Shown in pieces: positions 3,004 through 62,633 of a DNA stretch of 64,000 bases; the stretch's first letter is position 1, and every line of letters begins with the position of its first letter. This DNA is from a virus (taxonomy: Duplodnaviria; Caudoviricetes). The notes beneath the pieces were generated by a model. That model was not told where the DNA came from, searched no databases, and saw only the letters and a list, made by a program, of their open reading frames with translations. The stretch lies in the IMG/VR virus record IMGVR_UViG_3300027563_000006, positions 6,539-70,538 of that record. One strand, 5' to 3'. A program made the translations under genes and the position numbers.

Positions 3004-3631
3004 AAATAAGAAAGAGGCGGAGAAGATAGTCGGCACTCTATCTAAGCCTTCCAAAATGCCTGGGTTCGCATACTCGACCCCAGCTAAACACTGCCTTATC
3101 GGGCAGAAAATGAGGAAGGTTGCGGGTAGTATCTGTGCGTTTTGTTACGCACTGAAGGGGCGTTATGTGTTTCCAAACGTCATTGCGGCGATGGAAAAAC
3201 GTTTCAAGTCTCTGGCTGACCCGCTCTGGGTGAGCGCCATCTCGTATCTGATCGGCGGGCGTAAGAATTCTTATTTCCGCTGGCATGATTCGGGAGATCT
3301 CCAAGGCGTATGGCATCTAAAGAATATTGTTGAGGTAGCGAACAACCTACCAAACATTTTATTTTGGTTGCCGACCCGTGAGTATGCTTTTGTATCAAGT
3401 TACATTGAGCAAGGTGGATTGGTTCCAGACAATCTGTGCATTCGGTTGTCGGCTCTAATGATGGATGGCCCCGCCCCAGAGGGCATAGCCAAACGCCTTG
3501 GGTTGACGGTATCGGGTGCCAGCATGACTGGTAACTTCAACTGTCCATCGTCAAAACAAGGAAACAAATGCGGTGGATGCCGCAAATGTTGGGATAGAAG
3601 TGTATTCGCAATTGATTACAAGAAGCATTAA
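2981..3631 (+). CDS. GP88-family, radical-SAM-like Fe-S protein (start uncertain: 2957 ATG or 2981 GTG)
   Basis: LSKPSKMPG...C(x12)CAFCYA...FRWHDSGD...WLPTRE and C-terminal CxxCxxC (CGGCRKCW). Confidence 0.7.
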   Translation: MKSDSLFKNKKEAEKIVGTLSKPSKMPGFAYSTPAKHCLIGQKMRKVAGSICAFCYALKGRYVFPNVIAAMEKRFKSLADPLWVSAISYLIGGRKNSYFRWHDSGDLQGVWHLKNIVEVANNLPNILFWLPTREYAFVSSYIEQGGLVPDNLCIRLSALMMDGPAPEGIAKRLGLTVSGASMTGNFNCPSSKQGNKCGGCRKCWDRSVFAIDYKKH

Positions 3632-7704: not shown

Positions 7705-10700
7705 TTACTGTCTTTCGGGATACAAGATACCCTCTTGATTTTTCTCGGCCAGAACTTGATACAGAATTTCTTTTTTAATTGGATTTACAACTGCCCGTGT
7801 AACTTCTCTAAACTGACCCGGGCTCATTTGCTCTAGCTGTGGGATGAGCTGTGACAGTTGTTCCTGTATGATCGGCCCAGCTCTCATCATCCATTCGTAC
7901 TTCTCATCTGTTGAGAGTTCTCGTTTTAGACTGTAAAAGTCGTCGGCAGTCAACTGATCTCCTTTAGCTTGCGCATCCTGAATCATCTCAAGCATAGCAA
8001 AATCTTTAAGCGGGCCAGCATCCCAATCTAAGGAGGAACGCTTGGATGCGAACATGGAGATAAGCTTATCGTGAATTGCTTGCGGGGTTCTATCTCCATC
8101 GTCATAAGACTGAGAGTCAACACCCGTAGTGGTGAGTCGGCGTAAGAAAGGAACAGTATTCGCTACCTGTGTCTTGGTATTTCCTCCCAGGAAATCAAGA
8201 TCTGGCCGGCCAACCTTTGAAGCGAAAGGGATGGACTGGGCGAATGTGGATAGAAGATTTTCTTGATAAGGCCGAGCAGAGGGGGAGCCAGCTATGCCAT
8301 TGAATAGCTGCTCTACGTCACGGAGCGTTGCGTATCCAGGTATTAAACCACCAGCAACATTGCCAACCGTCTTACTGAGGTTAGTCATGATTCCTTTTGC
8401 ATCACGCTGACCGACGCCTGGAGAAGTGAGGGACATAAGCTGACGTATGCCCGATAGAGCTGCCATGTCTAGAATTCCGTACATCGCTAAGGCGCTGCCC
8501 GTCAGTCCGCCCAATACAATGGACTCCGCTACGGATCGTTTCTCGTATCGGATAGATTCTGTAATAGCTCCTGAGAGAAGTAGAGGGCCGGACAATCCGA
8601 CGGGGAAACCCTCAAAGCTGAAGAACTGTGGTTTTCCGTCGCTGAATCTTCCAATTTGAATAGCCCGAAGTTTTCCACCCGCGGCAAAGAAAGCTTCGCG
8701 TTGAGCTGGATCTGCTGGTCCTTTGAAATGGATGTTGAAATACGGATCATCTTCCCCGCCAATAGCATCTTTTAAGGCGGCTAGTAAAGTTCCAGTGATA
8801 ATATATCCTAGTGCCATTTTACCCAGCAGAAGGTCATGCTCAACTGTTCCGGGGACAGGTGGAGGGCGATAGTATTTGGTGTCCTTCAGCATGGCTGCGG
8901 AGCCGCGATACAATCTGATGGTGGACATCACTGGGAGAAAATTTAAAACTTCGTTCGCCAAGCTTGATCCAGTTTTTAAGAACTTGACAAACAACCTTAA
9001 CGGCCACGCTTTGGCGGAGATGCTCGTCAAACCGTCAGCTAATAATCCAAACCAGCCCTCAAAGTTATTTGTAAATGTGGACTGTGCCGCAAAAGTTTTA
9101 GCTTTCTCTGTTAAATTTTTAACAATCTCTTCGTCCGGCCTGCCTTGCTCAAGAATCTCTTCAACTCGCAACGACTCTTGTTCGGGAGTTAGATTGAATT
9201 CCTTAGCTTCCGAAGCCGCTTTAGCTTCTGCGCGCTTCCTGGCTTCCGGACTTTGATTGAGGAGTCGGGCAACTTCGGCCTCAATCTCATCGTTTGTCTG
9301 GAAACCTTGTGCGATTGCGATGTTAGTAGCCTCGGCAATCTCATACATTTTGCGGGAAGAAATTTTATTGATTGCGTCGCCAGCCGCCATAGATCGACCG
9401 AAGAATATGAAGGGGGCGAGGGCACCATACTTACTGCTTAGGAATTTAGAGTCCAGTGGGATTCTGTACTCTTGTCCGAATACATTAACCGGCAACTCAG
9501 GCTGAACAGCTCCTGGTTTTCCTGCTCGGTAATCTTCTGCCTGTTTTACAATCGCCTCCCAAATATTCACTCCACCCAGCTCTTGAGTCAGAGCGTCCTG
9601 AATGTTCGAATAGTCTCCGTTGAAAAATACATTCGCGGCTGCGTTTAGGGCCGGCTTCTCTCCGGCAAAGATAGCTGAGTTAAGTGCAATTGCCGCATCC
9701 TTATAGGCTTTAGCTCTTGCTTTGTCGCCAGCTATTCCTTTAGCTGCGCCTACCGCGGCGAGAATTCCAGCGTTCAGCTGATTGCTCATCGTCGAAGACC
9801 AAGCATTGATGCCGATCGTTCCAATCCCCGCCAGCAAGTTGGAAGTTTGATAGTTAACGAGCAACTCCCCCCACACTTGGGGTGACACTAGCTTTACATA
9901 CTGATACATCTCAGAAATCTTTTTATTCCGAATCATTCCGACCGGATAGAGAGGAAGATCTTCAATCAACTTGTTGAGCTTCTTGCGTTCTTCCTCTTTA
10001 AGCTCGGGCAATCCAAGCTGAGAATGCATTTGAGCGAATACTTCACTATCGTTCAAAACTCCAAGGTTGGTAGCCTCAATCAAACGGTCTAAGGCTGAAC
10101 GCATTTTCCTAGTCTTACGTTCTTTTTTTGCGTCAAATCTTTTCTTAATTCTTTCTAGTTCTAGCTTGCGTTCTTTAGCGATAAGATCCGTCAATCCTTC
10201 CCGCAGGAAGTCCGTTACTTCTTTCTTTTGAGCTTCGTCGAGCGTTGTGTTTTGAGTCAGCAATGCGCCTAGCTTGTTTTCAAAATCCATGATATCGCCC
10301 TTGCTCGAACGGATGAGGCCACGAATATTAGTTTGAGGCCCACCGATTGATTCGAGAGAGCGAACTGCCTGTTTCAAGCTCGACACAGTAAAGGGACGGC
10401 CAAAGGCTTCATCGATGAAAGGCTCAAGTCCAGCGAGTTCTTCTTCGCTATAAACTTCTTTCAAGGAGTCACGCACATTGTCGATAAACTCCATGACATC
10501 TGGATACTTCTCAATTCTGTCACGAAGAACTTCGGCCTCAGTCGGCTTGGGTTCTGGTGTGTAGGTAGGCTGAAGTCCGCCCTGCTCTTTTGTTCTCTGT
10601 GCAATGAGTCTGCGAATACGTGCAGCAAACTCTTCGAGCTGATCTTTTTTCTTTGGCTCTTGCTGTAAACGGACTGCTTGCTTTTGTAAAGCTTCTGCTG

Positions 10701-13700
10701 ATGCTTCCGCTAAAGCTTCAAGTCTCGAAGTGGCTTCGGTGGGAATTGCGACGGGTGCTTGGTCTTTGGCTTTAGCCTTGGCATCAATGACACGACGAAC
10801 TGCTTCACCGCGAGTTGTTGGGGGTTGAATGCTTTCGCGGGCGCGGGCTTCGCCAAGAGCTTGGGCTGAGAAAATTTCTAGAGCATTGGTCAAAGCCGCG
10901 TCAAAATAAAGATCGAGTTTGCGTCGAACATTCTCCTGATTCTTTGCGTCCCGCAGAGCTGGGGTAAGCATCAGCAAGCTTTTGATCTGATCTTCGGAAG
11001 CAGCAGTCACACTAGGATTTTCAGAACGCTGAATAATCTCAAGTATCATTCGGCTCAGGGCGGTAGTTTGTTCTGGGTTGAGACGAATGCCATCAGCATC
11101 ACTTCCCTCAACCTCGGGGGCGGCGGCTAGATCTGCCCCAAGGAATTCCGCCCCATCTGCCAGCGCTTGCTCGCTTCCAACGTATTCTGCTACTGCCGCT
11201 TCGAGTTCGGCAACAGTTGCTTGCTTCTTATTGAGCTCTACAAGTTTTGCAATTTTTTCAATCGTCGACTTTGTCTTTTTATCCGTCGTTAGTTTGTCGA
11301 CAGCTCTACGAGTTGAGTCAACAAGACCGGAGGATATCTCGCTTTCTTCTTCCGCAAAGCCTGTCAACCTTCCTCGAATCGACGAATCAATCTGTCGGTT
11401 AATGTACATCTTCATGGCTTCTGGATTGTTGGAGAGTTCCCCAAGTGCATTCCAGAGATCGACGGTTCGTCCAGGTTCGGTGCCATACTTCCTGCTCAAT
11501 AGGAGCATTACCTCTGCCAACTGTTCCCTGGCGTACAGGTCTGTCTTAGCTTTCGCACCAAGAGCATTGGCCAACTCAAATCCAATCGCACCCTGCAACG
11601 GCAAGGAGCTTTTGATGTTACCGCTCAAGAAAGCATTGAGAGAATTCTGCAATCCGTTTGTAGCGATATAAGATTTAGCGTCAGCAAATTGTTGTTCGCG
11701 TGGCACAGATTGGTAGTACCAAGCGTCCAAAAGTTTATCCTTCACCTTGCCTTCGGGAAGAACGTCCACGAACTGCGTGACGATATTCTTTACGGCTCGG
11801 CTCTCACGAATCTCGGGGGCCGGAGCAACCAGCGGGGAAACCATATTTACGGAACGAAGTTGTACGTTGGGTCCCCAATTTCGTTTTGCTCTTTCTACGG
11901 CTTGGAAAAAATTCATCCCACGAATAGCATCGGAAGTCCATGTATTTCCGTTGTCAGAAGATATTTCTAACTGTAAAGAATACGGATATTTTGTTTCGTC
12001 AAAACCTTTTCCTTCTTTTCCACTGCCTTCTTTTGGAAAACCTAAAAGTTGATTTTCTACATTCTCGTAATTCGTTTTAATTTTTCTCAAATCAGAACCG
12101 ACTGGAACTGGTTGAGCGACTTGAGGTGACGGAACTGGAATTAGAACTGGTCCGCCATCCAAAGAGACTGAGTTGACGATTGGTTTTTCCATTGCGACTG
12201 CGGGGGCCGGAGAGATAACCTTGGCGAACTTGTTATATCCAGCATCGCGGAGAGCAGCGATCAGAGGTCCGGGGCTGGTATAACGTTGGCCGTTATAGTT
12301 AACCACTTCCTGTCGTTCGAATAGTCGGATGACGGCATTAGCCGTGGCTTTGGCTTCTGAGGAAGCTGTAGTCGGAACGGCTATGTTGCCCGGAATCTTA
12401 ACGCGATATTGTTGGTATGCTGGTTGGGGTTCGAAACTTTGTTCATTGCTGGTCACTTCAGTGGGTGCGGAAGTTGCAACAAAAGCTGCGACGGGTAGTG
12501 ACCTTCCGGCTTCTTCCATATTTTCCGCCAACTCAAGAGCTTTATTGGCAATCGCTGGGAGACTCGCCCTGCCTCCGTCCATAACGGCTTGCGTTGCGGA
12601 ACGGAAAAGATCCCGCTCGTCAGCTGTAATAACTCCACGGCGTCGATTGATATCTAGCGCATCTAGCCATTCCTCCACACCAACGGTCTTAAATAAATCA
12701 TCGGCAACCGTTACCCCAAGCACACCTTCAGTTCTACCTTCCAGGTGATTCTCAATCATGCGGTAGATTCGAAGATCGTATGAGTCAAATACGGTCGCAG
12801 CGCGGGGTGCAGTCGGTGAAGTTCCCGGAGCCGGGATGGGTCTAGCCGGAGCTTCTCCAGCTTGTACAAATTCTTTTGATGTTTTGCGAAGTGTGGAGAT
12901 TGCATCCTCGATGCTTTGACGCATCACCAAACGATCTTTTGCGTTCGGGGCCAATCCCAATCCACGCTTGACCACTGTGGCCATGCTGTCAAACCACACG
13001 CCAAGTCTGGCAAGAACAGATTTACTTTCCGACTTTAAAATATCTTTGAGACGCTGTGTTGCCCGAGCGATATCGTTCGCATTCACAGAGTTAACTTGCT
13101 CTGTGACACCACCTGTTAATTTTAACTGGGATAGCTGACGGATTCCTTCCATGGCCACGAAATAAGGATCATTCGCAAGTGCCTTAATTTTTCCTTGCGT
13201 ATCTGAGTTTGTTATGTCGGACCCTAATGTTGCATAATATAATCTTCCGATAGCTAGTCTGGATGCTTGAGATAATGAATCTCCAATTGCAGTAAGTTCT
13301 TCAACAGGATCAAGACCGAGCTCGCGATAGTACCGCAAGGTCTCCATGTGAATTGTTTCTTCTAACAATGCCTGGGTTATATAAGACTTATAGGCATCGG
13401 GAGATAGAGTCTTCTTTCCTTTCTCCAGAAGTGTTGGGTTAACTACAATAGTATCGGAATCGTTATCTGATCCAACAACCACAGCCATCGAGTGGGTGAA
13501 GGTAGGATCAATCTTCACATTATAGTTGTGAGCCTGACCTTTAGCATCGCGGAATGTGATTACATTATTGTTGTAGTCTTTTCCAAGAGCTGATTTTAAA
13601 ATCTCATCTGTAGCAGAAACTTGTTCGGGAGTTGCTCCTACTGTTGACTTTACCGGGGCGACAGTTTCAGCTGGTTTGGTTTCTTCCGCTTTCAACCCCT

Positions 13701-16700
13701 CAAACCCGGCGCCAGTTGTAGCGTCCAGCAGACGAAGCTTGGCTCGCATGCGATCGATGTTCTGCTGATCAACTTCAGCTTTCGACTCCAAGAAAATAAG
13801 ATTGGGGCGGCTGGCGCTGTCGGTACGCCATACCCTATAGACGAGTTGAACGGCCTGAATCGCGCTGACGGGTGGCGACATAATAATCATGTCGCGAGGC
13901 TCGTCACCAAACTTATCATCTAGCTCAATCCCAGTTCCGCCCATTTCCTTTGTGGCAATGAGAACGTCAGCCGCGTTCTCATTGAAGGCGGCTAGTGCCT
14001 GTTCTTTTGTTTGGCCTGATCCGGTGTACATCCTTGCGATTCTAAGATCGGGGGCAAGGCGAAGGATTGCCGCTTCTACCGCAGCTGAAGTTGGGTCAAC
14101 CGCCTCACCGCGGGCATTTGTTTCTGAAACAAACCCAACATAGATAACTGGCTTGCGACCTTGGCGGATAGATTGGATGGCTCGCTTGGCTGCGGCATCA
14201 ACTTTATATTCTTCCAACGCTCGCTTCTGAGCGGATACTAATTTACGCAATGATGCAATATCGGTGTTTTGCGTACCGCCGTACATGTTCTTGATATCTT
14301 CAAGCTGCTTAGTGATCGCGGAATCTAACGGAACATCTTGGAACTCTACACTCACTCCATCCAATTTGAGAGAGCGAGAGCGTAGGATTCCGTTCTTTAC
14401 CAATCCATCGAGGTAAGCTTCGAGACGATCTTGCATCTCTGTTTCGGTAACTCCTGGCGACAATGTCCAGTAAGATTTCTTTCCACCGCGAAGATATTGT
14501 TTTTCAAATCCGAGTCTCTTGATCAAAGCGTCAGGTGACTCGGTATCAAAAATACCAAGTCGGCCAAGCGAAAGAAGCTGATCGGGTGTTTCAAACGGAG
14601 TTCCAGAAGCCATCAACACTCGACCAGCTTTCTGTGAAATATCATTCATCAGGATTGACCAGGCGCGGCTCTTACCCTCTTGGATTGCTTTGTGCAAATT
14701 GCGTCCGGAATGTTGTTCGTCGAAAATAACAACTGTCTTTGCATCTACCAACGGAAGAATCTTTTCTAAATACTGCGAGGTATAAGTTGAGACAACAACT
14801 TTTCCTGGCACATTCTCAATTGGAAGACCGCGACCACTCTCACCTTTACCCCCACGAGCTGCAATCGGAACGCCCATCAATCCGGCATCTTTCTCAATCG
14901 AGCCGCCAATTGTATTCAGATCCCAGTTCGGGGTCACGGCATCGGGAGCCGTCAAATAAAATACATTAAATCCTTTGTTGAGGTAGTATTTGGCTGCCGC
15001 CAACAATACTCGGGTCTTGCCGGTTCCGGGGCCGTTGGCCAAGTAAAAAGCTTTATGCTTGGAGCTTTCCATCGTGGTGATGGATGCCGCCACATCTTGT
15101 TTTTGTTCGGGGGATAAGAGTCTTACCGTATCCGAACCAATCGGATCTAGAACTTTCTCGCTATAAGGTTTGCCTAGCTGGTTACGGGATTCGACGAAGG
15201 ACTTGGGGATGGGGATGCCACGAGCGCGTTCAGCTCCAAGTCCCCCGACTCCGGTTGCCCCACTTGTAACAGCTGGTCCCACTTCTTTCCGCTCAGGGGG
15301 AACGGTTTCTTTAGGAACTCGCTTTGTGGTGGCAGCACGTTTGGCCTCGAGTTCCGAGAGCTTTTTGCGAGCCTCCTCACGTCGACCATCGGTTGTCTTG
15401 AGGTCGGGCTTTGTGGCTTCAGGTTTTTTGGATTCTTCATAGGTACCTTTCTCGTTTATGTTAAGTCCGCTATCGAGCAGGATTTGGTCGCTAACTCGGA
15501 GCAGATTCGATCGGAAGGTTAAAGCAATTTTATTTTTAGCTTCTCCCTCTTCAAGTGTTTGCGAAGCCAAATAGGGCTCCGCAAGTTTGTTTAGTTTGTC
15601 GATGTAATCATCGGCTTGTTTTTGTGACAGTCTGTCATCCTCTACCGCGTTTTTTAAATTGTTATCGATAGCTTCTGAGAGTTCCGTGATGGCTTCCGGA
15701 GAAAGCTTTTCTTGCGCGATCGACTCAATATAATTTTCAAAAGCCCGGAGCATTTTGACCGAACGAACTTTTTGCACTTCCGACAACAGGGACTTTGCTC
15801 CCGCGAGTTCTTCATCGTCAAAGAAACTATCCGATTGTAGTTTGCGGAATCTTTCTGCCGCGGGTTGTATTTGAGCGGCTGTTAGATTTCCCTCTCGAAC
15901 TAAGCCCTCTGGTTCGCTAACTGCGCGGGAAGGGAGAGTTCCCGCCTGCTGGTTCTTTCGGTACTCTCCCTCTAGACTGGAGATAAATCTATTACGAACT
16001 ACTTCTTGGATAACTTTAATATCGCCAACGGGAAGTTGGACTCCCGCAGCCTCCTGTTGGGTGATCTGTTTCCCCGAAACCAAAGCATCGAACGCGAGCT
16101 TTTCTGCTTCCGTAGTTAAAGTTTGTCTGAAAGAAGGAACAATCTGTTGGGCGAGAACCGCTAAAGCTTCCTGCCGTTGAGCTGGCGAGGGAACTTCAGA
16201 CTGTCCGACAACCTGATTATCCACCTCCGTCGCGTCAATCTGATCAAGAGTTTCATTGATGGCCCCCGCGACGGCTGGGTTCAAACCCTGCTCCTCCGCC
16301 AACGTTTCCGCATCAACGGCGTTAACGCGTAGACCGGGAGTCTCGAGGCTTACGGCTGCCCCAATTCCGACGCCCGCTCGCATCCGAGGAACGGCTCTGC
16401 GAATAAAGTCCCGCAGCCGGCTATTAAAAATTGTACTAAGAGAAAGATTGTTTTTGCCCTGGCGAAGTTCGTAAAGAAAACTGTTGATCGTGGCAGAGGA
16501 TACCTCATCGGATATATTATATTTTTGATACCCAGCCAAAGACTTACTTTGAAGATAAGATTTTTTGCGCTCAACGTAAGCTAATAGGGTTTCGGCGGGA
16601 GTCATGAGATCCCGACCGTTTTCGTCGATCGCTCCGAGGCTTTGGAGTAACTCAACCGTCGCGGGGTTTTTTAAATTAAAAACGCTGGCAAGAACATTTT

Positions 16701-19206
16701 GGGCGTCTTCTCTCGGATCGGGATTAAGCTTCTGATACTTTTGAAAAGATTCACTTTCCGGATTGTTGATCGGTAGAATGACATCGGGTCTAGCCTCGAG
16801 CTCGGGGGCTAATTTTCCCTCGCGGGATTCTGCTTGAACTTCACCCTCAAATTGTTGAACAAGTTTTGACACAGACTCTTCTCCTCGAACCAAGCGGGCA
16901 GCTTGCCCTTCAACCTGCATGGCCTGAAGTCTTGCCAGCTGTTCTTGCATGGCTGGTACTTCATCAACAGGGGCCTGTTTAATCTTAGTTTCAAGAACAT
17001 TAATTTGATCCTGTAATTTTTTTGCGTTAATTTCTGCTGGTTTTTCAACCTCTACTAGATCTTGACTTCTGGCCAGTTTACTTTCCAAAGCAATTTCGTA
17101 ATCGGTTGGCCCTAAATATTTTCTGGCCACTGATTCCAGGTCCTCAGGGGTTCCCGCTTGTTCAAGCTCAGACTCCATTTGATCGAGCTCTTCTTGCTCA
17201 ACCCCAACTTGTTCAGCTCGCAGGAGAAAATCATCTTTAAGATCTTGCTCAAATTCAATGGCCGGGATTCCGTTAAGCCAATTCCCCGAGTCTGTCTTTA
17301 CATTCGTTACCGAATATACTTTTCCGTCGGTCGAGAGTTCTCCAACAATTCGTCCTTGACTCTCGAGCCATTGAATCTTCGAAGCATTCTGCGGAGAATT
17401 AGCCAACTCAATTTTTGTATTTCCAGCTTCAAAAACATTGACTAACTCGTTGAGTGCGGAAAGTTTTTCCTCCTCGGTTTCTGGGGGTCCCTCTTTTAAA
17501 ATAGGAGCAACACCAATCCGACCTTCGGCCTCAGTAAGCTTGGCCGAAAGCATTGATTCAACAGCATTTTGTTTTGAGTTTTCGACCGCCTCGTCTGCTA
17601 CCTTTGCAGTTTCCGGGGAAGTGATACTATCAATTGATGTTCTTACGTTAATCGCATCAAATAATGCTTGGGCTTTAGGGGAAGAGAGCGATTGGCGGAG
17701 TTGAATAATCTGCTCCATCTTTTGTTGATCGTTCAAATTGGGGTCAGTCTTTATACCTGCAACCGTTTGATCAAGCGACTTGGCGAATCGATCGTCGGCC
17801 ATTGCGTAAATTTTTGCGCGCCGCGAAGCAATGACGCTGGAGGTTAGCCCGGGAATGGCCATTCCCAACCCGATACCGCCAGAGACGGCTAGATTTTGCA
17901 GAAAGGGTTCGATCGGATCTTGACCGCGGAGTATAGCTTCGATTTCTTCCGAAGCGGTCTCCCCTAAAGTTGTGCCGACAACTTTACCAGTGCTGCCCAC
18001 CAAGGGGGCTAAAGCGGGCAATTTAGTTGCAAGCGCTTTTGCGGCGACATGATTAGCTAGCGCGACATCAATTGACCCCTCTAGTTTATTTCCTGCGCCC
18101 TCCGCCAAACCAAGAACGGCGGCCTCGCTAAAAACAGAGGACAAACGCTGGGCGATAGAAAGATCTCGGGGGTCCCCTTCAAAAGATTGAGACGCTCCAA
18201 TCGTGGCGTAAGTCGCTCCTCGAGATAAAACAGCGGGCACCTTTATGGATTGACCCGCAATTTGAGCTGCTTTGTTTAGAAACTTGGTAGTGCCAGCCCC
18301 AACTCCTATAAATGAACCGACCGAACCAAGGGCTGCGCCCGCCAAAGTCCCGGTCATATAATCTTTTTGAATGATGCCATTGATTGAATTAGAGAGAGCA
18401 GAACGTCTGGCAACTTGATCTGGATCGTTTTCGTCGACTACAATATCCCCGATGGAAACAAATGGCAGAAACGCGTCGCCAGATTGAATGGCAAAATTTC
18501 GAAGGCTAGCCGAGCCCAATTTTTTAGAGCGATCGCTTTCCAGATCGCGGAGGTAATTTTCCGCCATAGCGAGGTTCATTCCTAACTTGGCTGTGAGTGG
18601 ACCCGCCCCAAAGGCCATGGCTGGGCTTTCGTCTTTAGGAGCGATAGACTTGCCGGCGGCTAATTCATCTTCGTAAAGGGCGCCCAGTTCCAGGGCTTTA
18701 GCTGCCTGTTCGGGGTCTTTGATTGTTCCTATGTAATTTCTAGCGGCTAGGCTTCTTTGAGAGGCTTCGGCCTCTTCGTTGGTCACACCGAGTCCGGATT
18801 GGAGAAACGATCCAATTACTTTCCCGGTGCCACCCAGCGCTAGCTTCGTCATCCCAAGCCAATCTTTTTTGCTTTCCGCCTCTTCAAAAGCCTTATTGTT
18901 TAAATCAAAATAATCTTGTATATTTTTATTTGCGTCCTGCAAAGATTGAGTGTTAAAAGGAGTTTTGCCGTCCCGCAACCTCGTCGCTAAACCCCCCAAG
19001 ATATCTATAGATTTTGGGTCGTCTCGAGTTTCAATAAAAGCACTCGCTTGTCCCAGATTAATTGACGGAGTTTGGGATAGAAATTGAATCTCTTCCTCTT
19101 CTTGAGAGCGGGGCGGGGGCGCAAAAAGTGCGTCTAGTGCTTGTTGATCGTTCTCCGTAAGCTCTGCTAAACCAAGCTCTGTCTCAGAAATGAGGGGATC
19201 CGCCAT
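7705..19206 (-). CDS. giant polyvalent internal virion/ejection protein (3833 aa)
   Basis: Last large gene of podovirus-type tail module after two ejection-like genes; helical N and C termini; internal SF2 helicase, zincin-like and sigma-like segments. Confidence 0.8.
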   Translation of the reverse strand: MADPLISETELGLAELTENDQQALDALFAPPPRSQEEEEIQFLSQTPSINLGQASAFIETRDDPKSIDILGGLATRLRDGKTPFNTQSLQDANKNIQDYFDLNNKAFEEAESKKDWLGMTKLALGGTGKVIGSFLQSGLGVTNEEAEASQRSLAARNYIGTIKDPEQAAKALELGALYEDELAAGKSIAPKDESPAMAFGAGPLTAKLGMNLAMAENYLRDLESDRSKKLGSASLRNFAIQSGDAFLPFVSIGDIVVDENDPDQVARRSALSNSINGIIQKDYMTGTLAGAALGSVGSFIGVGAGTTKFLNKAAQIAGQSIKVPAVLSRGATYATIGASQSFEGDPRDLSIAQRLSSVFSEAAVLGLAEGAGNKLEGSIDVALANHVAAKALATKLPALAPLVGSTGKVVGTTLGETASEEIEAILRGQDPIEPFLQNLAVSGGIGLGMAIPGLTSSVIASRRAKIYAMADDRFAKSLDQTVAGIKTDPNLNDQQKMEQIIQLRQSLSSPKAQALFDAINVRTSIDSITSPETAKVADEAVENSKQNAVESMLSAKLTEAEGRIGVAPILKEGPPETEEEKLSALNELVNVFEAGNTKIELANSPQNASKIQWLESQGRIVGELSTDGKVYSVTNVKTDSGNWLNGIPAIEFEQDLKDDFLLRAEQVGVEQEELDQMESELEQAGTPEDLESVARKYLGPTDYEIALESKLARSQDLVEVEKPAEINAKKLQDQINVLETKIKQAPVDEVPAMQEQLARLQAMQVEGQAARLVRGEESVSKLVQQFEGEVQAESREGKLAPELEARPDVILPINNPESESFQKYQKLNPDPREDAQNVLASVFNLKNPATVELLQSLGAIDENGRDLMTPAETLLAYVERKKSYLQSKSLAGYQKYNISDEVSSATINSFLYELRQGKNNLSLSTIFNSRLRDFIRRAVPRMRAGVGIGAAVSLETPGLRVNAVDAETLAEEQGLNPAVAGAINETLDQIDATEVDNQVVGQSEVPSPAQRQEALAVLAQQIVPSFRQTLTTEAEKLAFDALVSGKQITQQEAAGVQLPVGDIKVIQEVVRNRFISSLEGEYRKNQQAGTLPSRAVSEPEGLVREGNLTAAQIQPAAERFRKLQSDSFFDDEELAGAKSLLSEVQKVRSVKMLRAFENYIESIAQEKLSPEAITELSEAIDNNLKNAVEDDRLSQKQADDYIDKLNKLAEPYLASQTLEEGEAKNKIALTFRSNLLRVSDQILLDSGLNINEKGTYEESKKPEATKPDLKTTDGRREEARKKLSELEAKRAATTKRVPKETVPPERKEVGPAVTSGATGVGGLGAERARGIPIPKSFVESRNQLGKPYSEKVLDPIGSDTVRLLSPEQKQDVAASITTMESSKHKAFYLANGPGTGKTRVLLAAAKYYLNKGFNVFYLTAPDAVTPNWDLNTIGGSIEKDAGLMGVPIAARGGKGESGRGLPIENVPGKVVVSTYTSQYLEKILPLVDAKTVVIFDEQHSGRNLHKAIQEGKSRAWSILMNDISQKAGRVLMASGTPFETPDQLLSLGRLGIFDTESPDALIKRLGFEKQYLRGGKKSYWTLSPGVTETEMQDRLEAYLDGLVKNGILRSRSLKLDGVSVEFQDVPLDSAITKQLEDIKNMYGGTQNTDIASLRKLVSAQKRALEEYKVDAAAKRAIQSIRQGRKPVIYVGFVSETNARGEAVDPTSAAVEAAILRLAPDLRIARMYTGSGQTKEQALAAFNENAADVLIATKEMGGTGIELDDKFGDEPRDMIIMSPPVSAIQAVQLVYRVWRTDSASRPNLIFLESKAEVDQQNIDRMRAKLRLLDATTGAGFEGLKAEETKPAETVAPVKSTVGATPEQVSATDEILKSALGKDYNNNVITFRDAKGQAHNYNVKIDPTFTHSMAVVVGSDNDSDTIVVNPTLLEKGKKTLSPDAYKSYITQALLEETIHMETLRYYRELGLDPVEELTAIGDSLSQASRLAIGRLYYATLGSDITNSDTQGKIKALANDPYFVAMEGIRQLSQLKLTGGVTEQVNSVNANDIARATQRLKDILKSESKSVLARLGVWFDSMATVVKRGLGLAPNAKDRLVMRQSIEDAISTLRKTSKEFVQAGEAPARPIPAPGTSPTAPRAATVFDSYDLRIYRMIENHLEGRTEGVLGVTVADDLFKTVGVEEWLDALDINRRRGVITADERDLFRSATQAVMDGGRASLPAIANKALELAENMEEAGRSLPVAAFVATSAPTEVTSNEQSFEPQPAYQQYRVKIPGNIAVPTTASSEAKATANAVIRLFERQEVVNYNGQRYTSPGPLIAALRDAGYNKFAKVISPAPAVAMEKPIVNSVSLDGGPVLIPVPSPQVAQPVPVGSDLRKIKTNYENVENQLLGFPKEGSGKEGKGFDETKYPYSLQLEISSDNGNTWTSDAIRGMNFFQAVERAKRNWGPNVQLRSVNMVSPLVAPAPEIRESRAVKNIVTQFVDVLPEGKVKDKLLDAWYYQSVPREQQFADAKSYIATNGLQNSLNAFLSGNIKSSLPLQGAIGFELANALGAKAKTDLYAREQLAEVMLLLSRKYGTEPGRTVDLWNALGELSNNPEAMKMYINRQIDSSIRGRLTGFAEEESEISSGLVDSTRRAVDKLTTDKKTKSTIEKIAKLVELNKKQATVAELEAAVAEYVGSEQALADGAEFLGADLAAAPEVEGSDADGIRLNPEQTTALSRMILEIIQRSENPSVTAASEDQIKSLLMLTPALRDAKNQENVRRKLDLYFDAALTNALEIFSAQALGEARARESIQPPTTRGEAVRRVIDAKAKAKDQAPVAIPTEATSRLEALAEASAEALQKQAVRLQQEPKKKDQLEEFAARIRRLIAQRTKEQGGLQPTYTPEPKPTEAEVLRDRIEKYPDVMEFIDNVRDSLKEVYSEEELAGLEPFIDEAFGRPFTVSSLKQAVRSLESIGGPQTNIRGLIRSSKGDIMDFENKLGALLTQNTTLDEAQKKEVTDFLREGLTDLIAKERKLELERIKKRFDAKKERKTRKMRSALDRLIEATNLGVLNDSEVFAQMHSQLGLPELKEEERKKLNKLIEDLPLYPVGMIRNKKISEMYQYVKLVSPQVWGELLVNYQTSNLLAGIGTIGINAWSSTMSNQLNAGILAAVGAAKGIAGDKARAKAYKDAAIALNSAIFAGEKPALNAAANVFFNGDYSNIQDALTQELGGVNIWEAIVKQAEDYRAGKPGAVQPELPVNVFGQEYRIPLDSKFLSSKYGALAPFIFFGRSMAAGDAINKISSRKMYEIAEATNIAIAQGFQTNDEIEAEVARLLNQSPEARKRAEAKAASEAKEFNLTPEQESLRVEEILEQGRPDEEIVKNLTEKAKTFAAQSTFTNNFEGWFGLLADGLTSISAKAWPLRLFVKFLKTGSSLANEVLNFLPVMSTIRLYRGSAAMLKDTKYYRPPPVPGTVEHDLLLGKMALGYIITGTLLAALKDAIGGEDDPYFNIHFKGPADPAQREAFFAAGGKLRAIQIGRFSDGKPQFFSFEGFPVGLSGPLLLSGAITESIRYEKRSVAESIVLGGLTGSALAMYGILDMAALSGIRQLMSLTSPGVGQRDAKGIMTNLSKTVGNVAGGLIPGYATLRDVEQLFNGIAGSPSARPYQENLLSTFAQSIPFASKVGRPDLDFLGGNTKTQVANTVPFLRRLTTTGVDSQSYDDGDRTPQAIHDKLISMFASKRSSLDWDAGPLKDFAMLEMIQDAQAKGDQLTADDFYSLKRELSTDEKYEWMMRAGPIIQEQLSQLIPQLEQMSPGQFREVTRAVVNPIKKEILYQVLAEKNQEGILYPERQ
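13325..13440 (-). other. zincin-like (HExxH-variant EETIH) segment within giant protein
   Basis: IVVNPTLL...YITQALLEETIHMETLRYY; resembles metallopeptidase-like modules of phage polyvalent proteins. Confidence 0.4.
13720..15150 (-). other. strawberry-notch-like SF2 helicase domain within giant protein
   Basis: Walker A FYLANGPGTGKT, Walker B IFDEQH, motif III ASGTP, GGTGIELDD, QLVYRVWR. Confidence 0.7.
15970..16600 (-). other. ECF/sigma70-like domain within giant protein (about aa 870-1080)
   Basis: Region-2-like SDEVSSATINSFL...LSTIFNSRLRDFIRR, VSLETP, PSPAQRQE, region-4-like EAEKLAFDALVSGKQITQQEAAGVQLPVGDIKV. Confidence 0.5.
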
Positions 19207-19241: not shown

Positions 19242-20753
19242 TCAACGATTTTGTTGGCTTTCGTTAATTTTAGGGGTTTTCAAAAGGTCTTGAATAGGAT
19301 ACCCATTGGCTTTTAGTTTAGCAACTAAGTCTTTAGCTGATCTTCCAAAAACAAGCGAATCAGGATTTTTTCGATAAGCCTCTACTATGACGGACACGGT
19401 TGAGTCAGACATACGCGCTGGTTCTTTTTTAGCGGCTACGGGAATTGTTGCCGTTCCGGGTGCTCCCCGCTCAAAATCATTCCCGGAGCGGAAGGGGCGC
19501 GTCGCAACAGCCGTAGAGGGTGCTTGGGATGGAGCTGGAGCAACAGCCCGACCTGAAGAATTTTCAGCGGCGGCAGCCATCATCTTTTCAAAGGGGGTTT
19601 GTTGCCCGGCGTAGCGCGGGGAAGTCATTTCGTTTTCCCATTCCTTGGCCCGATCAAAAACGTTTTTTGTCAGTCGCCCTGTGTCGGGGTCAATGTTAGC
19701 GTCAAACCCGACGCGAGGGGATAGATCAGGAATGGGGTAAATAAATGTATCATATTCTTGCCCATTTTGGTCTACATTAACAACTTTAGTTGACGGGTTA
19801 ACCTTGGTTATGTTACTGGCAATTTGTGTTAACCGCGAATCAATGCCGCGGAGTTGCTTAACGGACTCGTTTAAATTTCTCTCATACATTATACCCTGAA
19901 CGGCTTTGCTTGTAAATTTATTTGGGTCATTCTTTAATTCGTCATATTTTTTTTGAAAATTTGGTTCTAGTCTATTTTGTTCAGCTAAGTCTTGAAAAGA
20001 TTGAAGCTCTTTTCCCACAACGGTATCGCGATATTTTTCAAGTTTGGCCAAAGCGGTGGCGCTTACTTTAGCAAAAGGATCGATTACCCTTGGATCTGTG
20101 TTGTTTAATAAAGAGAATTTGTCTTGAATCTCGTCTACTCTTGCTTGATACGCGTCAGGAGTAAAGGCTCTTGGGTCTAACTTGGCAAGCTCTTCCCCTA
20201 AACTTCTTGCGGGAGTGGCCGTGCGCAGGTTGTTCTCCTGCTGGGCAAGCTCTCTGTTTGCTTGAATTCCTGAATAAACATTGTCATAAAGAGAAACTCT
20301 TTGTAATCTTGTTAAATTAGCTTGTCCAATTTTTCCTAAAGCATTGTCTATTCTTTGGGGATCTCCGGAAAGTTGAGCTGCTCTAAATTCTGTTTCTAAA
20401 ACCCCGGCTTGCCTGTCCTGTTCTGCGGCTTTGCTTTGAGCATCCAGGTCATTAAGCTCTTTATTTTGGTCTAAACTGAGCCGAGCCGATGCAAGATTAT
20501 TCTGAAAATTTTGTTGTTCAGTTCGTTGGGCGTCGGACAAAATTGAGGCTTGCAGCTTTTGTGCTTCGAGATTCGCCTGCAAATTCTGAGTTTCTCTTTG
20601 AGCGCCTAATTGAGCGTAAGCCAATTCGAGCCGATCGGCAGCCTGTTCGTTTTCTTGAAATAGCTGTTGCTTTTTTAAAAAGTTGTTTCTCAGATCGTCA
20701 AGAATCCCTCGAACTGAGCCAACATAATCTGGGGCATTGGGGGAGAGGGCCAT
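19242..20753 (-). CDS. putative internal virion/ejection protein (503 aa)
   Basis: Gln/Ala-rich helical protein between tail genes and giant protein. Confidence 0.55.
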   Translation of the reverse strand: MALSPNAPDYVGSVRGILDDLRNNFLKKQQLFQENEQAADRLELAYAQLGAQRETQNLQANLEAQKLQASILSDAQRTEQQNFQNNLASARLSLDQNKELNDLDAQSKAAEQDRQAGVLETEFRAAQLSGDPQRIDNALGKIGQANLTRLQRVSLYDNVYSGIQANRELAQQENNLRTATPARSLGEELAKLDPRAFTPDAYQARVDEIQDKFSLLNNTDPRVIDPFAKVSATALAKLEKYRDTVVGKELQSFQDLAEQNRLEPNFQKKYDELKNDPNKFTSKAVQGIMYERNLNESVKQLRGIDSRLTQIASNITKVNPSTKVVNVDQNGQEYDTFIYPIPDLSPRVGFDANIDPDTGRLTKNVFDRAKEWENEMTSPRYAGQQTPFEKMMAAAAENSSGRAVAPAPSQAPSTAVATRPFRSGNDFERGAPGTATIPVAAKKEPARMSDSTVSVIVEAYRKNPDSLVFGRSAKDLVAKLKANGYPIQDLLKTPKINESQQNR

Positions 20754-20756: not shown

Positions 20757-21893
20757 TTAAGCATTAACTCCACGGTTTATTTTGGGGCCGTAGTATGGAT
20801 TTCGATCATTATACTTCCAGCTATTTTTTTCATACTGTTCGGCCGCGTATAATTGCGAGGGTGTTAGGGGAGTTAATCTGGTTCTATTCCCGCTGTAGCC
20901 TACATACTTGCCCGCTTTAACATCAAATTGCCCCGGCAGAGCTTGAGTCTGCCAAGCGTTGAGCAAGTTTTGATTTTGCGTTTGTTGGTTAACGGAGGCT
21001 GCGCTTGTCATCGTATCGAAAATAGATTGCGGAGCAACCATTAAACTCGACACTGACATGGGGGATCTTGCGGCGATACCTCTCTGGGTAAGATCAAAAG
21101 ATTTAGCAAAAAGATCTGCTCCGGTTTGTTGTAGGCCAAGGCTAGAAAGGCCGAGATCCCTGCTAGTTAAATTTCTCCCTAAACCACCCCTCATTAGGCC
21201 GGTTCCAAAACTAGTAGCAGCGGAAGATCGGGCTACCTCTTGGGCCACAGAAGCGGGTATACGTCCCCCAAGGTAGTCTTTAGCGATATCTCCCATGCTC
21301 AAAATGCCGGCTTGGAAACCAGGCATATAAGAATCGAATTCTTTCCGAGAGGGGGCATTGTATTTTTCGGCCAAAGCCGCCAGCTTGTCTGGATCATTTA
21401 CTTCGCCCAATCTTTTTGCATACTCCTCGTAAGGAATGTTTAATTCCTTTAAGGTGGGGGCTGGTCCTAGATAAAAATCGCTCGGCGCGCCAGAGCCAGT
21501 ATTGGGGGTAAAAGAGCTAGTGCTTTGATTCCACGACTGGGGCCTACTTCCCGATCCACCGAAAGAAGACGAACCGCCGGTAAAGGATCGCTGAGGGGCT
21601 TGGGAGTTGCTCCCACCGAAAGAAGATCCCCCCGAATAGGAGGGGAAGGAGGAAGAGGTTTGCCGGCCTCCGTATGAACCTTGGGCGGCGCTATTAAAAA
21701 TAGAGCTGTAGTCTTTTGAGGGAGCAAACATACTTGGGGTGTAAGAAGTGCCCAAAGCACCCGAGAAAGAATTAGAGTTAGAGAAGCTGGGGGTCGGAGA
21801 AATAAAACTCGATGCGGCGGGACCAGACGATAAAAAATCCGATATCATTCCCCCGGAACTTGGCGGGGTAATAGAAAACATTGATTTTGCCAT
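20757..21893 (-). CDS. putative internal virion/DNA-ejection (pilot) protein (378 aa)
   Basis: Ser/Gly-rich N-terminus; QEVARSSAA...GLGRNLTSRDLGLSSLGLQQTG typical of podovirus pilot-like proteins; position. Confidence 0.55.
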   Translation of the reverse strand: MAKSMFSITPPSSGGMISDFLSSGPAASSFISPTPSFSNSNSFSGALGTSYTPSMFAPSKDYSSIFNSAAQGSYGGRQTSSSFPSYSGGSSFGGSNSQAPQRSFTGGSSSFGGSGSRPQSWNQSTSSFTPNTGSGAPSDFYLGPAPTLKELNIPYEEYAKRLGEVNDPDKLAALAEKYNAPSRKEFDSYMPGFQAGILSMGDIAKDYLGGRIPASVAQEVARSSAATSFGTGLMRGGLGRNLTSRDLGLSSLGLQQTGADLFAKSFDLTQRGIAARSPMSVSSLMVAPQSIFDTMTSAASVNQQTQNQNLLNAWQTQALPGQFDVKAGKYVGYSGNRTRLTPLTPSQLYAAEQYEKNSWKYNDRNPYYGPKINRGVNA

Positions 21894-26670: not shown

Positions 26671-29577
26671 TTAATAGTTTGTGGCCATAATATGCCAACG
26701 AAGAGAGGCGACGCCATCGCAAACAAGTGTGGCAAATCTTCCCCCTTGAGTGGCTGTGCCCGTGCCAGAGCCAACTCCGGTGGCCACAAAAGTAGTCCCC
26801 ACAGTATTTGTCGCTGCTCCTATTGATGTGAAAACAGTCGAGCCAACAGACAGAATGGTATAGGTAGAGCCAACAACAAAAAAGCCGGCTGTAACTGCTG
26901 GAATAATCGTGGAAGTATCATTACCGAGCATATCCCTAATGTTATTCTGATTGGAATTAATTAGGGCGCCTTGTCTTGTTCTTAAATGAATCGTTCTTCC
27001 AGAAATGGCGGCGGTAGGAGTTGGGAAAGTTAAGGTAAGAGTTGAGTTGACTGCTAAAGACACATCTAGAAAAGCATCTTCAGATGCTATGGTGTAGGCC
27101 GTGGAGAATACGCTGGTGAATTTTCTTAACAGGGCCCCGGTGGAACCGATTCTGGTATTTCCAATAAAATTAGAAGTCCCGTTGACCGTGAATTGTTCGG
27201 AGAGACTTGTGCTGGTGTTAATCCCCACCCTTCCGTTGGAATCGTTTTCAACGAACAACCTTGGATTTGCCTGGTTGTTAGAACCAACAAAAATGCCGTT
27301 TAATATTCCGCCCCCAAAAGTGACTCCGCCAGCAAGATTAACTACCCCAGTAAATCTTGAAGTCCCATTGACCGTGAATTGTTCGGAGAGACTTGTGCTG
27401 GTGTTAATGCCTACTCTGCCTACAAAAGTACCGGTTTCAACGAACAACCTTGGACTTGTTTGCCCGTCGGCTCTTACGATAAGACCTTCCGAAAGACCGC
27501 CCGGGAAGGCAGCCGAACCAGCAACGGAAATTCCGCCGGGGAAAGTGGCTCCCCCAATAAATCTTGAAGTCCCATTGACCGTAAATTGTTCTGTAAGACC
27601 CGTACTAGTGTTGATCCCCACTCTGCCTACAAAAGTACCGGTTTCAACGAACAACCTTGTACTTGGTTGCCCGTCGGCTCTTACGATAAGGCCCTCTGTA
27701 AATCCAGAAGGAATAGAAATTCCGCCGGGGAAATTGGCTACCCCAGTAAATCTTGAAGTCCCATTGACCGTGAATTGTTCGGAGAGACTTGTGCTGGTGT
27801 TAATGCCTACTCTGCCTACAAAAGTACCGGTTTCAACGAACAACCTTGTACTTGGTTGCCCGTCGGCTCTTACGATAAGACCGTTCGAAAGACCGCCCGT
27901 AAAAGAAATTCCTCCGAGGAAATTAGCTGCCCCAGTAAAATTAGAAGTCCCATTGACCGTAAATTGTTCTGTAAGACTCGTACTAGTGTTGATCCCCACT
28001 CTGCCGGTGGCATCGTTCTGGACGAACAGCTTTGTTACTGTTCCTCCGGAGGTGTTTACGATAAGACCTTCTGTGAGTCCGCTTGACAAAGAAATTCCAC
28101 CGGGAAAAGAAGCAAGTCCACTAGCACTTAAGGTCCCAGTGATAGCTGTGTTCCCGAGAATAGCTGTAGTTCCGACCACATCAAACGGGACTGTTGGGAT
28201 TGCTTTATTAATCCCAACTCGGTTACTGGTTGCATCAACAAAAATTACACCTTGGTCTACATTAAGATTCCCGGTGATAGTTGTGGCTCCGCTGATGGTT
28301 GTGGCTCCGGTGATGGTTGTAGTTCCGGTGATGGTTGTAGTTCCGATCACATCAAACGAGTTATCTGGGGTTGTTTTGTTAATTCCAACTCTATTATTGA
28401 TTGCATCTACGACAAGTGTATGTGAATCTACATTAAAATTTCCTCCGACGATAGCTGTAGTTCCGGTGATGGTTGTGGCTCCGACGATAGCTGTAGTTCC
28501 GGTGATGGTTGTGGCTCCGGTGATGGCTGAGATTCCAACCACATCAAATGGGACTGCTGGGTTTGTTTTATTGATTCCAACTCGATTATTGGTCGCGTCA
28601 GCAAAAATTAAACCCGAGTCCACATTAAAATTTCCTCCGGCGATAGCTGTAGTTCCGGTGATGGTTGTGGCTCCGGTGATAGCTGTAGTTCCGGTGATGG
28701 TTGTGGCTCCGAGGATGGCTGTGGTTCCGACCACATCAAACGGAACGGAAGGCGCGGCCGTGCCAACACCAACTCGATTATTAGCCGCATCCACGACAAG
28801 TGTATTTGAGTCTACAGCTAATCCGCCAGAAATTCTAGAATCTCCAACCACATCAAACGCTACGCTGGGGGTAGTGCCAATGCCAACTCGATTGGTGCTA
28901 GCGTCTACAACGAGCGTATTCGAGTCAACTGTTAGACCCTCAGAAACTGCGATCGGCCCAAAAAATGCGGAGGCATTGCTAGATCCCCCGGCAGTCCCAA
29001 CCTGAAAAGTTCCGTTTACATGGAGTAAGCTCGCTGGGGAAGCTATGCCCATGCCGACTCGGCCGGATCCGCCGCCGTTCGCTTGGCAATACAACAAGTG
29101 TTCAAGTGAAACTCCCTCAACCCTAAAATCAGAATTATTCCCGCTAGTATTGATTGTGACTGGTCCATCTAGGCTGGTGACTCCTCCTGTAGCTACGGAA
29201 AGAGAAGGAATGCTTCCCGCAATAGTTGCAATTGCGGTGGGGGTAACTTTTTTACCGGCGGCAACTGTGGCGTTAACAGCAACACCATCTGTGCTCAGTA
29301 ATGTGGCCGAGACAGAATTTACCGGACTGGGTGATATGCTTATTACGTTATAAGTTCCAGCTTGAGCGATATACAGGGCTTGGCCAACTGCTACCCACGC
29401 TGTTTCTGCTAAAAAGAATGTAGCCACCTGTCCTATGGCGGGCTGGATGAAGGAAGCGGTTAGAGTTGAAAACGCATTTATTCCGTTGGCCCCAATAGTC
29501 CCGTTAATCCCGGGAAGACCCTGAGGTCCTTGGGGCCCGGCCTGTCCAACAACAAGTGTGTTACAATCGCAGCTCAT
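26671..29577 (-). CDS. tail fibre protein with collagen-like start and tandem repeats (968 aa)
   Basis: GQAGPQGPQGLPG; repeated NRVGI(G/N)..P...FDV.G and ITGTTAI units; about 63-69 aa repeats. Confidence 0.8.
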   Translation of the reverse strand: MSCDCNTLVVGQAGPQGPQGLPGINGTIGANGINAFSTLTASFIQPAIGQVATFFLAETAWVAVGQALYIAQAGTYNVISISPSPVNSVSATLLSTDGVAVNATVAAGKKVTPTAIATIAGSIPSLSVATGGVTSLDGPVTINTSGNNSDFRVEGVSLEHLLYCQANGGGSGRVGMGIASPASLLHVNGTFQVGTAGGSSNASAFFGPIAVSEGLTVDSNTLVVDASTNRVGIGTTPSVAFDVVGDSRISGGLAVDSNTLVVDAANNRVGVGTAAPSVPFDVVGTTAILGATTITGTTAITGATTITGTTAIAGGNFNVDSGLIFADATNNRVGINKTNPAVPFDVVGISAITGATTITGTTAIVGATTITGTTAIVGGNFNVDSHTLVVDAINNRVGINKTTPDNSFDVIGTTTITGTTTITGATTISGATTITGNLNVDQGVIFVDATSNRVGINKAIPTVPFDVVGTTAILGNTAITGTLSASGLASFPGGISLSSGLTEGLIVNTSGGTVTKLFVQNDATGRVGINTSTSLTEQFTVNGTSNFTGAANFLGGISFTGGLSNGLIVRADGQPSTRLFVETGTFVGRVGINTSTSLSEQFTVNGTSRFTGVANFPGGISIPSGFTEGLIVRADGQPSTRLFVETGTFVGRVGINTSTGLTEQFTVNGTSRFIGGATFPGGISVAGSAAFPGGLSEGLIVRADGQTSPRLFVETGTFVGRVGINTSTSLSEQFTVNGTSRFTGVVNLAGGVTFGGGILNGIFVGSNNQANPRLFVENDSNGRVGINTSTSLSEQFTVNGTSNFIGNTRIGSTGALLRKFTSVFSTAYTIASEDAFLDVSLAVNSTLTLTFPTPTAAISGRTIHLRTRQGALINSNQNNIRDMLGNDTSTIIPAVTAGFFVVGSTYTILSVGSTVFTSIGAATNTVGTTFVATGVGSGTGTATQGGRFATLVCDGVASLRWHIMATNY
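27150..28100. repeat. five tandem 189-207 bp units in tail fibre gene
   Basis: 111 bp identical at 27342-27452 and 27738-27848; units alternate between two sequence types. Confidence 0.85.
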
Positions 29578-29587
29578 TTAGTTCTCC

Positions 29588-31234: not shown

Positions 31235-31627
31235 CTACTTGAGAGCAGACCAGTTGTCCCGCCATTTGCAGTTGGGCTCCATATAAATGGATTTTGTGCG
31301 GGGAAGCTTTTCCCTTGGTATAATAAACATAGCGTCCAGAGTTGTATGTAAAAAGATAAAGGCGTCGCAATCTCCCTTGGTGTATAACCTTTTCTCCATA
31401 TGGCCAAAACCAGGTCCCCGGATAGCAAAAAACTTTAATTTTCTCCTCTGGCAGTCATCGCTTCCACTCGTGGTTTTAACTTGGACACGTACCAGCTTGC
31501 CTTTCCAATCTGTAACCAAGTCATACCCATCGTCATAGATGGGTAGGCTTACAAGAAAGCCTTGTTCCATCAACTTGGTGGAAACCTTCTGTACGCCTAT
31601 TGCTCCTAGTCTAATGTTATTACTCAT
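31235..31627 (-). CDS. free-standing PD-(D/E)XK endonuclease (homing-endonuclease-like)
   Basis: G..G...V...L...GF.VS.P..DDGYDLV...G.LVRVQVKT motif. Confidence 0.8.
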   Translation of the reverse strand: MSNNIRLGAIGVQKVSTKLMEQGFLVSLPIYDDGYDLVTDWKGKLVRVQVKTTSGSDDCQRRKLKFFAIRGPGFGHMEKRLYTKGDCDAFIFLHTTLDAMFIIPREKLPRTKSIYMEPNCKWRDNWSALK

Positions 31628-32166: not shown

Positions 32167-32498
32167 AACAAGGCGAAAGCCAGGACGAGCCCGAGGAACA
32201 CGGCGATCAAAAGAGTCGCCCGAGTCTGCCCGCCTAACTCCCGCCAATCGTCTCCCAAGGTATTGTTATCTATGTAGTCATCAAGAAATTTAAACTCTAA
32301 ATTGATTATTAGCCAAGCTAATGACACCGCAAAGAAAAGCTTAACTGCCGAAAAGAGCACTACGTGTAGGGCACCAAGATCCACAACACCCGCGCCGGGG
32401 GAAATATTCTGAAGGATGGGGCCTAAAGCAAGAAATAAAACCACGCTACATGCCAAGGCCCCAAGACCTTGTGCGTTGTCTTTTAGCCACTTTTTCAC
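32157..32498 (-). CDS. putative holin (three hydrophobic segments)
   Basis: 113 aa, 3 TM-like stretches, adjacent to endolysin. Confidence 0.55.
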   Translation of the reverse strand: MKKWLKDNAQGLGALACSVVLFLALGPILQNISPGAGVVDLGALHVVLFSAVKLFFAVSLAWLIINLEFKFLDDYIDNNTLGDDWRELGGQTRATLLIAVFLGLVLAFALLCG

Positions 32499-33682: not shown

Positions 33683-33711
33683 ACAAGGAGTGTGAATTAA
33701 AATAAGGATTT

Positions 33712-61635: not shown

Positions 61636-61645
61636 AACAAATCAA

Positions 61646-62074: not shown

Positions 62075-62083
62075 GGAAACACT

Positions 62084-62121: not shown

Positions 62122-62162
62122 TTTCAAAGAATCCAAGAATCTTAGAATCTATGATACCAAGC

Positions 62163-62627: not shown

Positions 62628-62633
62628 AAGCCA

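Follow-up and report, generated by a model that had tools for sequence, protein, structure and literature searches.

Phages are known to take over host transcription by means of free sigma factors (such as gp36 of phiEco32, a free-standing sigma resembling the extracytoplasmic function, or ECF, group), by enzymes that are injected to modify the RNA polymerase of the host (T4 Alt), or by means of a complete polymerase that is injected (N4, crAss-like and phiKZ-like phages). Alt is an injected ADP-ribosyltransferase that modifies host RNA polymerase (reviewed in PMC5512222), while the N4 virion RNA polymerase gp50, of 3,500 amino acids (aa), is cysteine-free and has its gene last in the late operon, behind those of two smaller proteins that also lack cysteine (PMC13434306). 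In the current work, a DNA stretch of 64,000 nucleotides (referred to as the window) was analyzed, representing bases 6539-70538 of the 70,538-bp IMG/VR virus record IMGVR_UViG_3300027563_000006, which is rated 98% complete and belongs to an uncultured phage known from metagenomes alone. The analysis concerns residues 826-1088 of the product of a giant open reading frame (ORF) of this phage, which we tentatively interpret, with chances placed a little short of even, as a highly diverged sigma-70-family-like module within an ejected polyvalent protein, the sigma2-like half of which would bind host core RNA polymerase.

The original prediction had recognized by eye, in this part of the giant protein, the succession of motifs that is typical of sigma factors. 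The sequence strings which it quoted are present in the giant ORF at aa 899-911, 923-937, 951-957, 1006-1015, 1030-1047 and 1069-1074 (window 15985-16512), and the interval that it assigned to them, 15970-16600, does enclose these strings, although it is one base out of frame (the in-frame intervals being 15967-16599 or 15907-16731).

Among described proteins, ECF (group 4) sigma factors, such as E. coli sigmaE, S. coelicolor SigR, and M. tuberculosis SigH and SigL, share with the module the order sigma2, linker, sigma4, in which the linker is acidic. In order to obtain a model, the segment aa 826-1100 was aligned with 26 whole homologues and folded by AlphaFold2 (AF2), residue n of the model corresponding to residue n+825 of the protein. 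The resulting model is all helical, with a mean predicted local distance difference test (pLDDT) score of 79.6 and a predicted template modelling score (pTM) of 0.63, and confidence is low just in parts of its middle. When this model was compared to the PDB by Foldseek, about three quarters of the top 49 rows were sigma factors, colinear with the model over approximately 280 columns; the best match was the sigmaA of T. thermophilus (5e17_F, E 9e-3, prob 0.89), and no match was obtained at E≤1e-3. Whole ECF sigmas were aligned with the module colinearly from end to end (162 of the 186 residues of sigmaE, 6jbq_F, and 161 of the 174 residues of sigL, 6dv9_F), and the reference sigma2 and sigma4 domains were covered near-completely. 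In a shape search of the ESM-Atlas the top three rows were sigma-70 clusters (TM 0.34-0.44), phage sigma factors lead the list obtained from BFVD, and a search with language-model features returned as its first match a cluster annotated ‘Sigma-70 family’ (0.95), 19 of its 30 matches being clusters that carry PF04542. By comparison, another helical model from the same phage, used as a control, gave 0 sigma rows among 50. The predicted model thus places a sigma2 fold and a sigma4 helix-turn-helix (HTH) fold one after the other in a single chain, which represents a middling likeness of fold and is not proof of homology; the weight of this evidence comes from one and the same family being indicated by five libraries and by methods of two different kinds, and from the canonical order of the two domains.

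The co-folding with the beta' clamp helices that the original prediction had put forward as a check was performed with the sigma2-like half (aa 826-950, with its alignment) and residues 230-340 of E. coli beta', and docking was indeed predicted. The complex obtained an ipSAE (interaction prediction score from aligned errors) of 0.71 as compared to 0.46 for the best control; the mark is reached by 58 of 80 solved complexes and by 2 of 110 mismatched pairs. The three docking runs share at least 97% of their contacts, and the pLDDT of the partners is at least 86. On the polymerase side the predicted interface comprises beta' 274-294, which we take to be the tip of the clamp helices and the place where sigma region 2.2 binds; on the module side it is formed by one face of the helix aa 898-915, the start of the helix aa 870-885, and a conserved N-terminal stretch. 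Within this predicted docking half, E833 is invariant and D900 nearly so. The in silico prediction thus positions the sigma2-like half on the clamp helices of E. coli beta', a docking that it would have in common with ECF sigmas.

Retention of the module in homologous giant proteins, a further check that had been proposed, was observed throughout: 45 giant homologues of 3,406-4,629 aa carry the segment at 42-100% identity, and a phmmer search over 1.84 billion representatives added two further giant homologues at 27-28% identity. No sigma factor and no free-standing copy of the module was retrieved by phmmer from the same 1.84 billion representatives. In an alignment of 19 diverse giant proteins the block aa 841-1050 is always present, with its first half about as conserved as the helicase that follows in the same protein, and the genes surrounding that of the giant protein are syntenic in distant relatives. 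The linker, aa 944-1007, has a net charge of -4 to -11 and is acidic in 17 of 17 diverse homologues, which we regard as reminiscent of the acidic sigma finger.

Turning to the context of the module, the minus-strand block of the phage genome specifies, in this order, the terminase (identified by a PHROG match), a protein of portal size (769 aa), one of capsid size (406 aa), tail-type proteins containing repeats, three proteins of 407, 378 and 503 aa, and finally the giant protein. This order of terminase, portal, capsid, two small proteins and giant is that of N4, where the giant protein would occupy the slot of gp50, and both genomes are about 70 kb in size. The 3,833-, 503-, 378-aa and capsid-sized proteins contain no cysteine, while in other proteins of the phage cysteine accounts for 0.2-3% of residues. 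The giant homologues (n=47) have 0-1 cysteine each, and the cysteine-free trio is also found in three distant relatives (L009, L010 and L011). In N4 (L026) and T7 (L027), the proteins gp50, gp51 and gp52 of the former and gp15 and gp16 of the latter, all of which are proven ejection proteins (roles: PMC13434306), are likewise devoid of cysteine; T7 gp14 has one, and the replication and tail proteins of both phages have 0.3-2.7%. A cassette of cysteine-free proteins is located at the distal end of the virion operon, and absence of cysteine could serve as a simple predictor of ejected proteins. By this analogy with N4 and T7, and from its last place in the late operon, the giant protein is probably an ejection-type virion protein, in agreement with what had been predicted. 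The 503-aa neighbour was considered as a protein of the T7 gp15 or N4 gp51 type, a candidate that found no support, VIA-align giving generic helical bundles only.

Polyvalent proteins (Iyer, Burroughs, Anand, de Souza and Aravind, 2017; PMC5512222) share with the giant protein a very large multidomain build, a virion gene neighbourhood, and an ATPase of the SWI2/SNF2-related, strawberry-notch-like type, and the giant protein is accordingly viewed as a candidate for this class. Its 3,833 aa, specified by the gene that closes the terminase-portal-capsid operon, combine several unrelated domains (the sigma-like module, a superfamily 2 (SF2) ATPase, and further conserved blocks). The hallmark domains of the class (MPTase, LPDs and ART-PolyVal) gave no Pfam HMM match in the giant protein, in which, unlike polyvalent proteins of the published catalogue (PMC5512222), no methylase was detected by Pfam either. 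LPD38 is indicated in its C-terminal region by language-model features alone (23 of 30 matches, at 0.96), and the distant homologue P0049 contains an ART-PolyVal domain which, at 30.5 bits, scores just under the Pfam cut-off of 31.2 and falls where the family is variable. The word ‘sigma’ is absent from the text of the catalogue of 131 polyvalent-protein domains (PMC5512222), and in a full-text literature search no publication came to light in which a sigma is fused to a virion protein or packaged as a portion of one.

A considerable number of observations weigh against the proposed interpretation, beginning with the sequence itself. No Pfam sigma family was matched at E≤10 by the segment or by 11 diverse homologous segments, and this includes Sigma70_r2 (PF04542), Sigma70_r4 (PF04545) and r4_2 (PF08281). 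PHROGs searches of the segment revealed no link to sigmas, profiles of the segment retrieved no sigma from PDB sequences (the only matches being a chance match to yeast Cus1), and shuffles were not outperformed when E. coli RpoE segments were scanned, without gaps, against the profile of the module. When hhalign was employed against six proteins of the E. coli sigma-70 family, the whole module gave P=0.024 over 194 colinear columns, the sigma4-like part P=0.008 (probability <5%), and the sigma2-like part P=0.16, as compared to 0.6-0.9 for reversed controls; the alignments of the whole module and of the sigma4-like part are in the right register, so that by sequence this link to sigmas may be called weakly suggestive. 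For the sigma2-like half, hhalign and helix-level structural mapping disagree, leaving its residue register uncertain. As no method clearly beats chance at this level, including phmmer, the resemblance of the motifs to the sigma consensus that had been noticed by eye is not significant alone, and membership of the module in the sigma-70 family is not supported at the sequence level. The module differs from ECF sigmas not only in the lack of such matches, and in its 64-aa linker with two helices and its poorly conserved, non-basic recognition helix, but also from free-standing sigmas in general, being located at residues 826-1088 of a 3,833-aa protein. What stands of the original assignment is the two-domain fold, the sigma-70-family identity of the best structural and language-model matches, and the order sigma2, acidic linker, sigma4; what does not is membership by sequence.

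The structural results are subject to reservations of a similar kind. Every structural score is middling by the calibration of the respective tool, and, because solved complexes of sigma with beta' exist, the predicted docking may restate the likeness to sigmas and mirror it rather than binding. Among the docking controls one scored as high as 0.46, E. coli beta' serves as a proxy for that of the actual host, and residues at the predicted contacts show no higher conservation than the remainder of the domain (0.65 versus 0.68). As for the supposed ejection, no similarity to any N4 or T7 protein was found at E≤10 by phmmer or hmmsearch, and for this reason the parallel with these phages is architectural only.

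Where the reading of promoters by the sigma4-like helix is concerned, the indirect signs are unfavourable. The presumed recognition helix has a conservation of 0.44; the sigma4-like domain has a net charge of about zero and its helix is not basic; and close relatives have a proline early in this helix, a more canonical pattern being found only in the two most distant homologues. The templates that had been proposed for transcription assays belong to a G-rich cluster (61551-62770). Approximately 100 nucleotides of this cluster show 97% identity in a relative in which the giant protein has only about 78% identity and a helix that departs at most positions. Such identity amid more diverged proteins marks the G-rich element, judged by its sequence, as functional, yet it does not track the recognition helix, and the proposed pairing of these elements with the module was consequently not borne out. 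A sigma-70 consensus scan showed no enrichment over shuffles anywhere examined, and a repeat search found no shared intergenic motif other than the G-rich cluster. As a separate observation, the G-run-rich element is non-coding, contains small hairpins (window 61549-61648; hairpin at 62084-62115) and precedes a plus-strand block of small ORFs (relatives L024 and L025); 7 of the 10 matches to a G-rich decamer in the window lie inside 1.2 kb.

The lack of a sequence-level sigma signal also favors an alternative according to which the segment is a helical bundle followed by an HTH that merely resembles sigma2 and sigma4 and makes no contact with RNA polymerase, for instance because it holds the leading end of the phage DNA, binds another host target, or acts as a spacer. 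In line with such a view, the best structural match of the C-terminal half of the module is NttA and not a sigma, TFIIB and cyclin folds are also among the structural matches, and HTH domains are frequent in polyvalent proteins (PMC5512222). It is nevertheless considered rather unlikely, given that five libraries and the language model independently rank sigma factors first, with the domains in canonical order and the sigma2 and sigma4 references covered almost in full, that docking is predicted at the canonical beta' site, and that the helical control model is free of sigma rows. A six-frame search of the 98%-complete genome gave no match to PF04542 or PF08281 (PF04542 controls being detected). 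The absence of another recognizable sigma, the empty search for a T7-type polymerase (in which the controls were silent too), and the fact that packaging of the giant protein rests on inference leave some room for a module that works as a sigma-like unit in the producing cell, for example driving or timing late transcription before packaging, or for a giant protein that is never packaged, but this is very unlikely in view of the cysteine-free trio and its position, which match the proven ejection cassettes of N4 and T7, of C-terminal features that resemble a phage-only polyvalent-protein domain, of the near-threshold ART-PolyVal domain in a distant homologue, and of the odd design that a tethered sigma of 3,833 aa would represent for a diffusible late factor.

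The positions of the features discussed here are collected in Table 1.

Table 1. Location of the giant gene, its predicted parts and its two small neighbours in the window; model residues refer to the AF2 model
Feature	Window position	Strand	Description
Giant ORF	7705..19206	(-)	3,833 aa, 0 cysteines, uninterrupted by stop; last large gene of the late (virion) operon
Sigma2-like domain	16378..16731	(-)	aa 826-943, model residues 1-118; better conserved half
Sigma2-like helices			aa 848-857, 870-885, 888-896, 898-915, 923-943
Acidic linker	16186..16377	(-)	aa 944-1007, model residues 119-182; 64 residues, two helices, confidence low in parts
Sigma4-like helix-turn-helix domain	15943..16185	(-)	aa 1008-1088, model residues 183-263
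Presumed recognition helix			aa 1060-1088; least conserved element
SF2 ATPase/helicase	13714..15111	(-)	aa 1366-1831; strawberry-notch-type signatures; ~280 aa past the sigma-like module
C-terminal 954 aa	7708..10569	(-)	two hydrophobic segments, near aa 3459-3482 and 3563-3581
503-aa protein	19242..20753	(-)	cysteine-free, slender, all-helical, with a 120-residue helix; directly upstream of the giant gene; candidate ejection-cassette partner
378-aa protein	20757..21893	(-)	cysteine-free; second candidate ejection-cassette partner

Within the giant protein, the SF2 region is matched by Pfam ResIII at 25.9 bits, over the cut-off, and by AAA_34 and Helicase_C_4 below it, AAA_34 being over its cut-off in the homologue P0049; the C-terminal 954 aa gave no Pfam HMM match. 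The block aa 1912-1970 (window 13297-13473), also without a Pfam match, is marked in 19 diverse homologues by invariant residues (G, D, I, N-P, E..H, R and E), and looks enzymatic, possibly with a degenerate zincin-like site. The stretch aa ~2340-2460 (window 11827-12189) is present in only about 40% of homologues, and its counterpart in P0049 (aa 2497-2655) is the ART-PolyVal-like domain referred to above; a variable stretch and such a domain in a distant homologue together suggest cassette exchange within the giant protein. A T7-type polymerase (PF00940) was not found in the phage genome by a search whose controls gave no match either, and neither a DxDxD nor a T7-type motif is conserved in the giant protein; with no PF00940 match (the controls also being silent) and no such catalytic motif, the idea that the giant protein harbours a polymerase was rejected.

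Outside the giant gene, two late genes of 968 and 534 aa (window 26671-31192) contain long internal tandem repeats with units of ~190 nucleotides and ~39-66 nucleotides, which are typical of fibre or spike proteins, and the virion block also encompasses (window 31624-36051) genes for a CHAP-domain protein, a sulfotransferase and a BspA-type leucine-rich-repeat protein. A glucosaminidase gene that follows the giant gene in relatives was not seen at that place here. The plus strand encodes an SF2 helicase, a PD-(D/E)XK nuclease, a family A DNA polymerase and a primase-like protein. No tRNA genes were found in the phage, which therefore offers no clue of this kind to its host, and neither the module nor the portal had cultured-phage relatives by blastn or tblastn, the C-terminus giving a single weak match.

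If the segment is indeed a diverged sigma-like module, the following sequence of events may be envisaged. Its architecture would be that of the ECF type, a sigma2-like helical domain being joined by an acidic linker of 64 residues to a sigma4-like HTH, and the giant protein, together with the two smaller cysteine-free proteins, would fill the slot at the end of the virion operon which N4 gives to its injected RNA polymerase. We infer that the giant protein would be packaged, expelled through the tail with the DNA, and refolded in or at the cytoplasm, where the conserved sigma2-like half is predicted in silico to clamp onto the beta' clamp helices of the host core enzyme, so that the host polymerase would be captured where the DNA enters. 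Whether such capture would lead to transcription of the first phage genes, with the module acting as a true initiation factor, is doubtful; that the enzyme would instead be held or withheld, the module being a tether or a decoy, is distinctly unlikely. The adjacent strawberry-notch-type SF2 ATPase could cooperate with the sigma-like module.

As compared to N4, the likeness would consist in the delivery of transcription machinery with the DNA, which for the phage described here is a proposal. As a difference from gp50, no conserved catalytic motif was found in the giant protein, nor a T7-type polymerase domain in the search with silent controls, and what it delivers would be an SF2 ATPase together with a subunit that binds the host core enzyme or confers specificity on it, where the cargo of N4 is a polymerase. 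With T4 Alt it would share the redirection of host RNA polymerase by a virion-delivered protein ahead of phage gene expression; whereas Alt is an enzyme that modifies the polymerase, the module would mimic a subunit and act in stoichiometric amounts. In its most extended form, which we consider unlikely, the proposal holds that in an uncultured lineage of ~70-kb phages with an N4-like layout a sigma-like subunit, fused with an SF2 motor and likewise injected, has taken the place of the injected RNA polymerase, such that the tethered module captures host core enzyme at the ejectosome and starts, or mechanically assists, transcription of the incoming DNA before any phage gene expression.

If the proposed interpretation is true, a promoter-specificity or core-binding subunit within an ejection protein would constitute a fourth route of takeover next to free sigmas, injected modifiers and injected polymerases, and a hitherto undescribed means of gaining control of transcription as the DNA enters. 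The phage could then produce its first transcript and be spared the cost of carrying a polymerase, and the catalogue of polyvalent proteins would gain a new class of domain, while the soluble module of approximately 270 residues would make early events directly testable for many phages that have not been cultured.

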